Numbered from the stretch's first letter, positions 22,092 through 40,213 are shown. The stretch is 64,000 nt of DNA from Escherichia coli (GCF_003334385.1 NZ_QOWN01000007.1), one strand, 5' to 3'. Notes: generated by a model not told the origin, from the sequence alone. Translations and numbers: made by a program.

Positions 22092-22224
22092 ACCGACTCC
22101 TGATTCAATTGTATGATGGTATTCATTGAACAGAACAATGGATCCCCCACCGTTGCTGACCGCAAAACATTTACGCGATTAATACTGCGCGTAATATAAT
22201 TAAAAATCCAGCATTCTCAATCCA

Positions 22225-22662
22225 TTACGAAAGAAGATGGCATTGCGGAATAGCCAGACTTCCTCGTGTTAACGTCCGACAAAATGCGTCATTGACAGCG
22301 GTTTCTCTGGAATGACAGATTTCATTCAGATAATGGATTAATGCTACAGCCCCACCAGCCGGACCAGTCAGCAAACGGGCATTGTGTTCTGCAATCAAAA
22401 TTACCGTCGTTCCCTCAGAATGAGCGAGCCATTCTGGTACGGATATCTCGCTTTCAGCTGCTATCAATAGCAGCACTGAATAATCGCTATACGCATCTGA
22501 TAACGATTGCACAGGCCCACCGTCAAGAGGCTGGAAATCTTGCTGCCAGTCCTCACCAACAAAACAGGTTATTGGCAATATTTCAGCCAGATGTTTCGCC
22601 AGGTCCACATCTCCAGATAAGAGGCAAAAAAGAGCTATCGATTCGGGTTTTATCGTTTTCAT
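22225..22662 (-). CDS. Hypothetical protein (145 aa from ATG 22662 with a GGAGGG SD; the ORF extends to a GTG at 22731), downstream of the cobalamin riboswitch in the cbi-deletion scar
   Basis: ORF only; no family recognised. By synteny it sits where cbiA-cbiP would be in Salmonella but does not look like CbiA or CbiP. Confidence 0.3.
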   Translation of the reverse strand: MKTIKPESIALFCLLSGDVDLAKHLAEILPITCFVGEDWQQDFQPLDGGPVQSLSDAYSDYSVLLLIAAESEISVPEWLAHSEGTTVILIAEHNARLLTGPAGGAVALIHYLNEICHSRETAVNDAFCRTLTRGSLAIPQCHLLS

Positions 22663-22899
22663 GCCCCTCGCCCTCCACTTAATTTCCTGTAATGGCGGTC
22701 TGGTTGATAAGCCATGAAACAAGATTGCCACACCTTGAATGCAGCCCTGGTGCCTGTCGGCACTGCGATGAAAGAACTAAATGATGCCGCCATACCCTGA
22801 TCCTTTCAGGGTGGTAGGGGTATAAAGACGCGCCAGTACTCTACCGGACGCTTCCGGGCAACCCACTTCCCACCGAAGTTGTTGGTATTGACTGACAGA

Positions 22900-23035
22900 C
22901 TGGTCTTCTGGCTTAGCGTCATCCTCACCCGACCTTCCCAATCTCGCGATCAGTGGCATTTTCGGGTTTGTCAGCATTACAGCAGCGGGGGCTGCGAGGG
23001 ATTTTCACCCTCTTCCCAGGCACAAATGTGCCACA
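22900..23035 (-). promoter_or_regulatory. Cobalamin (B12) riboswitch, the cbiA-leader equivalent
   Basis: Minus strand reads GGGAAGAGGGTGAAAATCCCTCGCAGCCCCCGCTGCTGTAATGCTGAC ... GCCACTG ... GGGAAGG; downstream TTCGGTGGGAAGT matches the btuB leader as I recall it. Confidence 0.6.
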
Positions 23036-23143
23036 CCTGTCAGCGTATGTTATGAGCTGATTTCACTTTTCCCATAACACGTAAATAACGTTAATTATTC
23101 ATTCCAGCGTTTATTTAAACCTTCCCTTTTTTTAGCATTTACT

Positions 23144-24058
23144 CTATACCGTTTCCATCGCCGCATTTTCACTCACTTGCTGTCGATACACCTGCGGCGT
23201 AACCTGATAAGTCTGACGGAAAACTTTGCAAAAATAACTGGTTTGCGAAAAACCTAAATTACGCGCAATGCTGGCGATGCTCCAGTCACTATGGCACAGT
23301 AACTCACGAGCACTGGCCATCCGTTGTTGGTTTACCCACGCATTAAAACCGATTCCATGGTATTTCTTGAATAACTTACTGAAATAATAAGGACTTAGAT
23401 AAACGTGCGAGGCGACATCTTCCAGACGCAAATCGTCTGATAAATGCGCATCAATATAGCGTAAAGCTTTTTTCATTTTATTGTCGTGGGGATTAGGCGC
23501 ACGAGTCTGGCGCACCGAATCTGACCGAGATTTGTTCTCTTTAATAACCACAAAATTGAGTTGTTTTTTGAGGCAATTTTCCACAATCAACTTCAACAAA
23601 TCAGCAGAGGCCATAACTCTTGAGTAATCCATCTCAGGAACTTTGCGGAATTCATTAAGTAATTCGGGATCTGCCTGCCAGCAATCATCGACATTCAGAA
23701 TATCGACCAAATCGACATCATCATTACGCAGACGAACTTGCCCGCACAATACAAAACCGACTAAATGTCCGGCGATTACCAGTGGAATAGAGAAATCGGT
23801 TAATCCGGCATGACAGCGATAAATACAAGGCTGATCGGATTTAGAGGCTTCCAGGCCCCCACAACGATCGCTCATGCGACATCGAGTGCTTAGCTGAGGG
23901 TGTTGCCGCATCATCTGACAAAATGGAGTGAAGTTAAACAGCTCGGAAATTTCATCGCCGTGAATATTGACCACGACAACCGCAAGGCTTGTCGCCTGCG
24001 CAAAATCCTGCGCGATTTTATTAATGAGTTCTGAATTAAGTGTCGCCGCAGAAATCAT
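23144..24058 (-). CDS. pocR: AraC-family regulator PocR of the pdu/cob regulon
   Basis: 304-aa translation matches Salmonella PocR; C-terminal AraC HTH. Confidence 0.85.
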   Translation of the reverse strand: MISAATLNSELINKIAQDFAQATSLAVVVVNIHGDEISELFNFTPFCQMMRQHPQLSTRCRMSDRCGGLEASKSDQPCIYRCHAGLTDFSIPLVIAGHLVGFVLCGQVRLRNDDVDLVDILNVDDCWQADPELLNEFRKVPEMDYSRVMASADLLKLIVENCLKKQLNFVVIKENKSRSDSVRQTRAPNPHDNKMKKALRYIDAHLSDDLRLEDVASHVYLSPYYFSKLFKKYHGIGFNAWVNQQRMASARELLCHSDWSIASIARNLGFSQTSYFCKVFRQTYQVTPQVYRQQVSENAAMETV

Positions 24059-24260
24059 GATAAAACCTCCCAGTTAATTTATTGTTATAGCAAAACAATT
24101 GTTTTACATTTAATCTTCACATCATCCCTGATGATTTACTGACGAGAAGCACAAAGGACAATAACAAAAGCCTCCGTGAAGCGGGAGACTTTTTAATAAG
24201 TTCGGAAAGCAGATCACAAACAGTAAAAAAATAAATGTTTATAACTGCCAGAGTATTTCG

Positions 24261-25070
24261 TTATTCGCTAATTTCTTTCGGTGTAACACTATTGACAGGT
24301 AAATTCTTTGCAATGAGATAGCGATAAATCGTCGCACCAACACATGCCCCAATGATCGGTGCAATAATGGGTACAATGAAATAAGGAATATTGCGTCCAC
24401 CAGTCATCGCAATTTCTCCCCACCCCGCAAGCCAGGTGAAAATCTTAGGTCCAAAATCACGCGCTGGATTCATGGCAAAACCGGTTAATGGTCCGGTAGA
24501 AGCACCAATAACAGCAACCAGAATACCAATAAGTAAAGGCGCAAGCGATCCTTTGGGTACGCCATTACCGTCATCGGTCAACGCCATAATCAACCCCATT
24601 AACATGGACGTTATGACCACTTCGACCAACGCAGCTTGCCATACATTAATCGCCGCTGCCGGATAAGTACTGAAGATACTGACGAGTTGTAAACTTTCTG
24701 CACTACCACGCACCATATTGTGAGCAGATTCAAAATCGGTAAACAAACTGCTGTATAGAGAATATGCCAGAACCGCACCACCAAAGGCACCCGCTAATTG
24801 CGCCACACAAAATGGCAGCACTTTACGGGCTGGGAAAGAGGCAAACAGCCACAGAGCAATGGTAACAGCCGGGTTGAGATGAGCGCCGGAAATACCTGCC
24901 GTAAGGTAAACAGCAAGCGAAATCCCTAACCCCCAAATGATACAAATTTCCCACAGTCCCAGACTTGCCCCGGCAAGTTTCAGGGCGCACAAACAACCGA
25001 TGCCAAAAAAGAGGAACAGTCCGGTGCCTAAAAACTCGGCAACGCATTGCGCCTTGAGTGAATCATTCAT
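24261..25070 (-). CDS. pduF: Propanediol diffusion facilitator (MIP/aquaglyceroporin family); start taken at MNDSLKAQ
   Basis: Two NPA motifs; matches PduF; divergent from pduA. Confidence 0.85.
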   Translation of the reverse strand: MNDSLKAQCVAEFLGTGLFLFFGIGCLCALKLAGASLGLWEICIIWGLGISLAVYLTAGISGAHLNPAVTIALWLFASFPARKVLPFCVAQLAGAFGGAVLAYSLYSSLFTDFESAHNMVRGSAESLQLVSIFSTYPAAAINVWQAALVEVVITSMLMGLIMALTDDGNGVPKGSLAPLLIGILVAVIGASTGPLTGFAMNPARDFGPKIFTWLAGWGEIAMTGGRNIPYFIVPIIAPIIGACVGATIYRYLIAKNLPVNSVTPKEISE

Positions 25071-25109
25071 AGTGACACCTTCTTTACGGAGTTTTTCTTT
25101 ATCAGCCAA

Positions 25110-38758: not shown

Positions 38759-38760
38759 CC

Positions 38761-39315
38761 ATGTCGAAAGCGGTAGGTATTTTAGAACTTAGCAGTATCG
38801 CGAAAGGGATGGAAACCGGCGACGCCATGCTGAAAAGCGCCAACGTTGAGTTACTGGTCAGCAAAACGCTATGCCCCGGAAAATTTCTGCTGATGCTCGG
38901 TGGCGATGTGGGCGCGGTGCAACAGGCCATCAACAGCGGAGCGTCCCTTGCTGGTGAAATGCTGGTCGACAGTCTTGTCCTGCCGAATATTCATCCCAGC
39001 CTCCTTTCTGCAATCAGCGGACTTAACCATGTTGAACAGCACCGGGCTGTCGGCGTAGTCGAAACCTGGAGTGTCGCCGCCTGCATTGACGCTGCCGATT
39101 GTGCTGTCAAAGCTGCGAATGTCATTCTCGTTCGCGTACATATGGCTTTTGGCATTGGCGGTAAATGCTACATGGTGGTTGCTGGCGATATTTCAGATGT
39201 TAATAACGCGGTCTCTGTCGCCAGCGAGCGTGCGGGGGAAAAAGGTTTGTTGGTCTATCGGTCGGTGATTGCCCGTCCACATGAAGCCATGTGGCGTCAG
39301 ATGGTGGAGGGATAA
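38761..39315 (+). CDS. pduT: Tandem-BMC shell protein
   Basis: 184 aa, two BMC domains. Confidence 0.85.
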
Positions 39316-39665
39316 TGACAACTCAGCACACAACTGAACGGATGATTCAGGAATATGTCCCTGGTAAGCAGGTCACGCTGGCACATGTCATCGCCAATCC
39401 AGGGAAGGATCTGTTTAAGAAATTGGGTTTACCAGACACCATTTCCGCTATTGGCATTCTGACGATTACCCCCAGCGAAGCATCTATCATCGCATGCGAT
39501 ATCGCCACAAAATCAGGCGCTGTAGAGATCGGTTTTCTTGATCGTTTTACCGGTGCCGTAGTGCTGACTGGTGATGTTTCTGCGATCGAATATGCACTTA
39601 GCCAGGTTACCCGTACGCTGGGTGAAATGATGCGCTTTACCGCCTGCCCCATTACGCGAACCTGA
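39315..39665 (+). CDS. pduU: Permuted BMC shell protein (start at [12 protein letters not shown], overlapping the pduT stop as TAATG)
   Basis: 116 aa, matches PduU. Confidence 0.8.
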
Positions 39666-39669
39666 CGTT

Positions 39670-40113
39670 ATGCAACGTATGATGCTCATCGGCCCCAGCC
39701 AGTGCGGAAAAACGTCACTCACGCAATGTCTGCGTAGCGAAAATATTCATTATCAGAAAACGCAGGCAATCGTCTGGTCCCCGACCACCATTGATACACC
39801 AGGCGAATACCTCGAAAACCGCAGCCTCTACAGTGCACTGTTGGTCAGTGCCTGCGAAGCAGACATTATCGCGCTGGTGCTTAATGCGGACGCACCGTGG
39901 TCACCTTTTTCGCCAGGCTTTACCTTGTCAATGAATCGCCCGGTCATTGGAGTAGTAACCAAAGCAGATTTAGCCAGCATGGAACAAATATCTTTGGTGA
40001 AATGTTGGTTACGGGAAGCTGGAGCGCACAACGTGTTAGTAACCAGTGCGGTTAATAACAATGGAGTGGCAGAACTTTTAGCCTTGCTGCATACAGAAGA
40101 AGGCTGTCGCTAA
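39670..40113 (+). CDS. pduV: Small GTPase-like protein PduV
   Basis: 147 aa, P-loop GPSQCGKTS. Confidence 0.8.
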
Positions 40114-40172
40114 TTTCGACAGGTTATCAGATGGGAATGATGACGGTGATACACAGAAAAGAATCAATGAAC

Positions 40173-40200
40173 ATTGAGGGTTGCCAGGCAACCCTCAATG
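40173..40200. terminator. Long inverted repeat (cattgagggttgcc / ggcaaccctcaatg) between convergent pduV and yeeX; U-rich tail on the minus strand
   Basis: Perfect 12-14 bp stem read from sequence. Confidence 0.55.
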
Positions 40201-40213
40201 AATAAAACAGGAA

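Follow-up and report, generated by a model that had tools for sequence, protein, structure and literature searches.

A propanediol-utilization locus of Escherichia coli as the probable resident form of the enterobacterial cob-pdu region

Propanediol use favours enteric bacteria in the inflamed gut, and the propanediol-utilization (pdu) genes are a marker enriched in Crohn's-associated Escherichia coli. We analysed a stretch of 64,000 nucleotides from an E. coli genome (NZ_QOWN01000007.1; hereafter the window, by which the whole stretch is meant), in which positions 22,092 to 40,213 carry the Escherichia form of the B12-dependent propanediol-utilization microcompartment locus, present in about 640 of 5,426 complete E. 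coli genomes (~12%). The closest described systems are the cob-pdu regulon of Salmonella enterica, the pdu operon of Citrobacter (pduA-X) and the pdu locus of E. coli itself, the last of which, reported from the adherent-invasive E. coli (AIEC) strain CUMT8 and from cluster M of sequence type 372 (ST372) (PMC9220930, PMC9997745), is the same locus as the one studied here. The pdu locus is thus already known in E. coli, and the conservation of relic reading frames and the reading of the locus as ancestral are modest additions.

With the Salmonella regulon the window shares the chromosomal slot by tmaR-yeeA, the order of pocR, pduF and pduA-V, and a leader and riboswitch homologous to those that precede cbiA: the cob leader, up to and including the cbiA ATG, is 82.5% identical, and protein identities range from 56% to 98%. 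It differs from Salmonella in the absence of pduW and pduX, in the shrinkage of cbiA-cbiP to a 44-codon fusion and a 145-codon relic, in a synonymous divergence (dS) above 1, and in a B12 supply that would be salvaged here and is made in Salmonella. The Citrobacter operon has the same gene order, the same flanks and a hairpin ahead of tmaR, but retains pduW and pduX; on the cbi side this comparison covered the leader only. E. coli K-12 is collinear with the window across ldtA-cobTSU and tmaR-yeeA-sbmC (97.3% and 98.6% identity) and still has the 3' portions of pduV (as yoeF) and of the cbiG relic, but carries 12.7 kb of the prophage CP4-44 in place of window positions 22397-39930 and consequently has no riboswitch, pocR or pdu genes. 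Among the E. coli pdu carriers most are at least 95% identical in the segments tested, and the window's strain differs from the other loci in a private nonsense change in pduG and two private missense changes.

Our analyses support the view that the locus represents the enterobacterial cob-pdu region in its resident Escherichia form, very probably inherited in the slot that the region occupies in Salmonella and Citrobacter, between ldtA-cobTSU and tmaR-yeeA. An ancestral locus overwritten by CP4-44 in most strains would correct the common assumption of import, and the evidence for it is relevant to the old model of loss and reacquisition of cob and pdu in enterics.

Junctions with CP4-44 and the layout shared among Escherichia

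The window was matched to the E. coli chromosome, with strain ETEC1734 as its nearest relative (99.6% identity over 46 kb). When a 22-kb query around the locus was compared with the complete E. coli genomes, its flanks matched 5,424 of the 5,426, and at least 80% of the query was covered in 636. Gene calls follow the RefSeq annotation of the near-identical ETEC1734 and the results of NCBIfam scans with proteins translated from the window itself. On the minus strand the order is ldtA, cobT, cobS, cobU, a 145-codon 'hypothetical' open reading frame (ORF), a cobalamin riboswitch, pocR and pduF; on the plus strand it is pduA, B, C, D, E, G, H, J, K, L, M, N, O, P, Q, S, T, U and V, and downstream of pduV lie the convergent tmaR (yeeX), yeeA, sbmC and dacD. 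A preliminary description of this DNA had placed pocR, pduF and pduA-V in Salmonella order, as the annotation and scans bear out. The argument on origin turns on the following features.

22225-22662, minus strand: cbiG' relic, an ORF of 145 codons equivalent to CbiG residues 1-119 followed by a divergent tail
22397-39930, no strand assigned: interval replaced by CP4-44 in K-12 and most E. coli, set by the limits of K-12 homology
22659-22793, minus strand: cbiA'-'cbiF mini-ORF of 44 codons, read directly from the sequence and set against cbiA and cbiF of Salmonella
22881-23055, minus strand: cobalamin riboswitch in the leader of the cob operon; 107.8 bits with Rfam RF00174 (gathering score 31.5)
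40172-40200, no strand assigned: perfect hairpin with 14-nt arms, found by folding (minimum free energy z = -4.6)

Homology to K-12 extends from ldtA through cobU and a further 305 bp, ends within the cbiG relic at window position 22396 and restarts within pduV at 39931, the last 183 bp of pduV (its 3' end) being held in K-12 yoeF. CP4-44 is annotated in K-12 exactly between these two break points. In searches with junction-spanning queries, the K-12-type left junction was present in 3,709 and the right junction in 3,334 of the 5,426 genomes (61-68%), O157:H7 and O111:H8 being among the carriers, and a transposase remnant abuts each junction. Because K-12-type genomes retain the ends of cbiG' and pduV at shared junctions, CP4-44 must have overwritten a resident pdu locus, and this replacement of the pdu interior apparently happened once. 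Judged from its sequence, K-12 is best described as a deletion derivative, rather than as an empty site or one with an alternate occupant; most E. coli descend from, or received, the CP4-44 version, and ~12% retain pdu. The preliminary description had correctly assigned CP4-44 to this interval of K-12, as the K-12 annotation and the homology limits confirm, but its notion of a recombination hot spot filled alternately by pdu or CP4-44 does not hold, since K-12 keeps both ends of the pdu locus and the junctions are widespread. A literature search pairing yoeF with pduV returned no paper with yoeF, and one on cobUST together with pdu returned nothing relevant.

The same layout, pdu-pocR-riboswitch-cbiG'-cobUST-ldtA, occurs in E. 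albertii, E. marmotae and two further Escherichia lineages. The G+C content of the pdu genes (50-53%) is typical of E. coli, and between Escherichia lineages their dS (~0.2-0.55) is similar to that of the flanking cob genes and ldtA (~0.24-0.7). Vertical inheritance with loss is favoured by this combination of a shared layout, an E. coli-like base composition and comparable divergence of pdu genes and flanks.

Relics of the cob operon

The preliminary description had reported that no cbi genes accompany cobUST, pduO and pduS. Functionally this stands; as a statement about the DNA it does not, for relics of cbiA, cbiF and cbiG persist together with the riboswitch at 22225-23055. Of the features of a cob operon, the riboswitch leader and cobU, cobS and cobT are present and the corrin-ring genes cbiA-cbiP are not. 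The expression platform of the riboswitch extends to the cbiA start codon at 22793; riboswitch and platform are almost invariant across Escherichia, and the leader is highly conserved with Salmonella and Citrobacter. The mini-ORF that begins there retains the cbiA start and ~15 first codons that are CbiA-like, fused in frame to ~15 last codons that resemble the C-terminus of CbiF, and its TGA overlaps the ATG of cbiG' (ATGA). The cbiG' relic matches NCBIfam NF004463 over positions 1-125 of 351 (E = 2.6e-19, far under the cut-off) and is 43% identical to residues 1-119 of Salmonella CbiG; a Pfam scan of the relic gave no match, so that the NCBIfam CbiG model alone detects it. The cob operon thus decayed in situ, and two internal deletions account for the arrangement: one begins at about codon 15 of cbiA and reaches almost to the cbiF stop, the other runs from the middle of cbiG to the end of cbiP.

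Both relic ORFs, with equal lengths and the ATGA overlap, were found in five Escherichia lineages (E. coli, E. albertii, E. marmotae and the two further lineages), and a related relic survives in the lineage of GCA_023277125.1, in which the mini-ORF has 49 codons and stops at the ancestral cbiF stop and from which cobUST has been lost. Since the relic ORFs are common to all these lineages, the loss of de novo B12 synthesis is ancient and, like the loss of pduW-pduX, older than the speciation of Escherichia. In GCA_023277125.1 the order is pocR, the riboswitch, the 49-codon mini-ORF and a 156-aa cbiG relic, followed directly by ldtA, and a glycyl-radical-enzyme microcompartment cluster adjoins the pocR-relic region.

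The cbiG' frame has stayed open in all five Escherichia lineages, and both relic ORFs show 25-30% amino-acid divergence and ratios of nonsynonymous to synonymous substitution (dN/dS) of 0.27-0.55, the range found for cbiG', compared with 0.01-0.08 for most pdu genes and 0.24 for pduH. Under a random-position model, the chance that all of the 174 substitution events would miss creating a stop codon is ~0.003. The cbiG' relic is thus evolving not quite neutrally. One might suppose that riboswitch, mini-ORF and cbiG' form a unit, either a conserved translated leader or a new small protein, that keeps cobUST under adenosylcobalamin control, and the open and coupled frames in five lineages, the dN/dS values, the avoidance of stops and the near-invariant riboswitch speak for it. 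We nevertheless consider such a function a tentative possibility and rather unlikely: the conserved, catalytic-looking CbiG motifs GATGIAVR and SGH are gone from the relic, the related relic of the GCA_023277125.1 lineage survives where cobUST is lacking, and K-12-type strains manage without the unit.

When 1.84 billion representatives were searched exhaustively with HMMER, 30 relatives only were recovered, and these were relics of the Escherichia type, enterobacterial CbiG, or CbiG with a frameshift or truncation. Membership of a wider family of stand-alone CbiG-N proteins was rejected on this ground. When Salmonella cbiF-cbiJ DNA was compared by distant blastn with the 5,426 genomes, the only match was a cbiG relic on an additional pdu island of strain 48, described below.

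Gene content, predicted pathway and the pduG stop

The genes of the locus and their immediate flank are as follows.

19715-20794, minus strand: cobT, nucleotide-loop assembly; from the RefSeq annotation of ETEC1734
20806-21549, minus strand: cobS, nucleotide-loop assembly; from the RefSeq annotation of ETEC1734
21546-22091, minus strand: cobU, nucleotide-loop assembly; NF004469, 244.8 bits against a cut-off of 161
23144-24058, minus strand: pocR, AraC-type regulator; NF047788 equivalog, 554 bits against a cut-off of 500
24261-25070, minus strand: pduF, propanediol facilitator of the MIP family; TIGR00861
25582-25866, plus strand: pduA, shell protein; BMC-domain match
25863-26675, plus strand: pduB, shell protein; NF011944, 475 bits, above cut-off
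26694-28358, plus strand: pduC, subunit of the B12-dependent diol dehydratase; NCBIfam match above cut-off
28368-29036, plus strand: pduD, subunit of the B12-dependent diol dehydratase; NCBIfam match above cut-off
29051-29569, plus strand: pduE, subunit of the B12-dependent diol dehydratase; NCBIfam match above cut-off
29579-31411, plus strand: pduG, large subunit of the diol dehydratase reactivase, interrupted by an in-frame TAA; TIGR04491
31401-31751, plus strand: pduH, the reactivase partner, present; from the RefSeq annotation of ETEC1734
31771-32046, plus strand: pduJ, shell; BMC-domain match
32043/32070-32492, plus strand: pduK, shell; BMC-domain match
32495-33127, plus strand: pduL, phosphotransacylase; NF011652, 256.2 bits
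33124-33615, plus strand: pduM; RefSeq annotation and NCBIfam scans
33619-33894, plus strand: pduN, shell pentamer; EutN/CcmL family match
33906-34913, plus strand: pduO, adenosyltransferase; TIGR00636, 160.9 bits
34910-36295, plus strand: pduP, aldehyde dehydrogenase; NF011927, 713.5 bits
36306-37418, plus strand: pduQ, alcohol dehydrogenase; Fe-ADH family matches
37415-38758, plus strand: pduS, reductase; RnfC-like 4Fe-4S family match and RefSeq annotation
38761-39315, plus strand: pduT, shell; BMC-domain match
39315-39665, plus strand: pduU, shell; assigned from the RefSeq annotation of the identical sequence
39670-40113, plus strand: pduV; TIGR02528, 181.9 bits
40214-40543, minus strand: tmaR (yeeX), convergent core-genome flank; NF040881, 187 bits

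The PduC, PduD and PduE translations scored 1072.7, 389.9 and 353.4 bits against NF011979, NF011616 and NF011971, all over the cut-offs. Of the features that define a Pdu-type locus, PduCDE, the shell set (PduA, B, J, K, T and U with PduN), the aldehyde branch, PduO and PduS, and the divergent pocR-pduF are all present; an intact PduG-PduH reactivase, and PduW and PduX at the operon end, are not. A match to the small RNA family STnc230 of Rfam (24119-24202, plus strand, 74.8 bits) lies between pocR and pduF, on the strand opposite to both genes.

By analogy with Salmonella, PocR would activate the divergent pduF and pduA-V operons on 1,2-propanediol, which PduF would admit to the cell. The shell proteins PduA, B, J, K, N, T and U, with PduM, are predicted to build a microcompartment enclosing PduCDE, PduP, PduL and PduQ, inside which the B12-dependent PduCDE would yield propionaldehyde; PduP would convert this to propionyl-CoA and PduL the latter to propionyl-phosphate, while PduQ would recycle NADH through the formation of 1-propanol, and PduGH, PduO and PduS would reactivate the dehydratase and re-adenosylate its cofactor. 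Propionyl-phosphate would then leave for a cytoplasmic kinase, and because no PduW is encoded the ATP-yielding step is assigned to the core enzymes AckA or TdcD. Assembly of the nucleotide loop by CobU, CobS and CobT turns cobinamide into cobalamin, a salvage route. The cofactor may accordingly be imported either as cobalamin or as cobinamide to be finished by CobUST, and since cbi genes are lacking an imported corrinoid would be required; the dependence on exogenous corrinoids put forward in the preliminary description is supported by this gene content (cobUST, pduO and pduS present, cbi absent here and in the 5,426 genomes). PduX is a threonine kinase that serves only de novo synthesis of the linker, so it would be dispensable here and its loss alongside cbi is to be expected. 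The reliance of the Escherichia locus on borrowed corrinoids and housekeeping kinases helps to predict when the pathway works.

In strain CUMT8, deletion of pduC abolishes growth on 1,2-propanediol (PMC9220930). B12-dependent growth on this substrate and the formation of microcompartments, shown in other E. coli strains, are doubtful in the present one, to judge from its pduG sequence. The gene is interrupted by an in-frame TAA at 30626-30628 (E350*, GAA to TAA), which cuts off the C-terminal 261 of the 610 residues. TIGR04491 is matched by the first half of the gene over positions 1-347 and by the second over 349-599, and intact PduG can be aligned over its full length with DdrA, of which a crystal structure exists (PDB 2D0O). 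The locus had earlier been called complete, which in this strain it is not. The stop probably inactivates or cripples the pathway by disabling sustained dehydratase activity, and for this genome the presence of pdu genes does not equal a working pathway.

Comparison of the window with two close relatives, ETEC1734 and KFu019, revealed five private substitutions between 25684 and 30626: PduA Y35N, a synonymous change at PduC R468, PduC A528T, a synonymous change at PduG R274, and PduG E350*. The two missense changes are located as follows.

25684, plus strand: PduA Y35N, private missense change at a conserved residue
28275, plus strand: PduC A528T, private missense change at a conserved residue

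Among the comparators, which span Escherichia to Vibrio, residues Y35 and E350 are invariant in 28 of 28, and 26 of 27 have A528. None of the five alleles was found in any comparator locus; the three that alter the protein (Y35N, A528T and E350*) were found in none of 587-642 pdu-positive complete E. coli genomes, the T of the pduG stop being seen in 0 of 587. Import of the substitutions by recombination was rejected for this reason, the alleles being absent from the comparators and, for the three tested, from the complete E. coli genomes.

The stop and its neighbours might instead be sequencing or assembly errors in a locus that is intact and functional, as would suit five changes that are all single-base, that cluster within 4.9 kb and that occur in no other genome. 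We think this possible, although we doubt it. The surrounding 21 kb is identical to ETEC1734, which indicates that general sequence quality is high and makes poor quality unlikely; ETEC1734 has four private substitutions of its own in the same stretch (pduC-pduL, 27596-32715), suggesting real local variation; and independent pdu pseudogenes exist in relatives. As to the state of the locus elsewhere, pduC is split into two ORFs in one E. marmotae isolate, 'E. coli SCPM-O-B-8794' is without pduM, pduN and part of pduO, and E. albertii has a degraded cobU, no cobT and an intact cobS.

Island or inheritance, and the operon end

In the usual wording of the literature the pdu block is a horizontally acquired island, at an integration hot spot that CP4-44 fills in other strains. 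Such an origin would suit the ~12% prevalence, the mobile, low-G+C islands directly upstream (associated with asnV, G+C 37-44%), the identity to Salmonella pdu genes of only ~77% with dS >1, and the several gains and losses traced in ST372 (PMC9997745). We regard it as improbable. The pduV and cbiG' fragments that flank CP4-44 in K-12-type genomes imply that pdu was there first; four other Escherichia lineages have the identical layout and pattern of decay and likewise lack pduW-pduX; Salmonella and Citrobacter carry the block in the same chromosomal slot; and the G+C content is that of E. coli. A pdu island that is clearly foreign looks different. E. coli strain 48, the sole E. coli genome with pduW, carries a second pdu island of foreign type (NZ_CP166879.1, 5238950-5280130), rich in mobile elements and at a separate place on the chromosome, which comprises btuB, a riboswitch, a 144-aa cbiG relic, a second riboswitch, pocR, pduF, pduA-V, pduW and IS66 and has no pduX, and whose proteins are 72-96% identical to those of the window, i.e. 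as distant as those of Salmonella.

Several points weigh against inheritance of a resident locus all the same. Its distribution in E. coli is patchy, at ~12% of complete genomes. Between E. coli and E. albertii, dS reaches 1.1-1.3 for cobS and ldtA, far above the pdu genes, an elevation from which it follows that the region has been partly exchanged between lineages. The substitution of AckA or TdcD for PduW and the uptake of B12 are drawn from what is generally known of E. coli and Salmonella rather than from the window, and the pduG stop could be a sequencing error. The locus has been described as a horizontally acquired island with repeated gains (and losses) in ST372 (PMC9997745; PMC12922286), and re-entry by homologous recombination between strains is compatible with the data.

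At the operon end, the stops of pduV (40113) and tmaR (40214) lie 100 bp apart, and this spacer has no similarity to pduW or pduX; the absence of both genes, with pduV followed by a convergent terminator and yeeX, had been noticed in the preliminary description and is upheld. The T-rich tail of the hairpin at 40172-40200 falls on the minus strand, and the hairpin is the terminator of tmaR; it probably terminates pdu transcripts as well. A scan for promoter and terminator consensus sequences overlooked it because the T-run is imperfect, and folding detected it. In Salmonella and Citrobacter a comparable hairpin sits after pduX. Between pduV and tmaR, Salmonella enterica subsp. diarizonae and several species of Citrobacter have pduW (404 aa) and pduX (300 aa); the pduV-tmaR flanks are homologous across Salmonella, Citrobacter and Escherichia, with Escherichia lacking the 2.2 kb. 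Salmonella, Citrobacter and E. albertii share the tmaR flank, and in the E. albertii type strain the locus stops at pduV, as in E. coli.

A search of the 5,426 genomes at blastn sensitivity with Salmonella pduW-pduX DNA matched a single genome, by its pduW and on a different island, namely the foreign island of strain 48. Neither an assembly artefact nor cbi genes elsewhere, either of which had earlier been named as fatal to the description of the locus, was encountered in the searches of the 5,426 genomes. That pduW and pduX are missing through an error of assembly or through a recent deletion specific to this strain, a reading for which no support was found, has negligible probability and is refuted by the recurrence of the pduV-hairpin-tmaR junction in closed genomes, in E. 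albertii and, as a relic, in K-12, and by the restriction of pduW-like DNA to one of 5,426 genomes and to another island.

Upstream of the cob genes, window positions 9221-9290 correspond to the last 16 nt of K-12 asnV with 54 nt downstream of it, and there is no tRNA gene in the window. To the left of 9221 lies a low-G+C island with an RHS core protein (frameshifted in ETEC1734), an NTF2-fold immunity protein and two large hypothetical ORFs. Positions 9291-18726 hold a sugar-utilisation island absent from K-12 (hxlB, rpe, two phosphotransferase systems, and regulators of the DeoR and SorC types), in which an extra A in ETEC1734, relative to window position 15275, frameshifts a gene for an isomerase of the RpiB/LacA/LacB family; the window is without the extra A, and its copy is presumably intact. 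Downstream, Rfam matches mark ordinary core features, namely STnc240 (48392-48466, minus strand), the his operon leader (51206-51329, plus strand) and STnc490 (61505-61628, minus strand).

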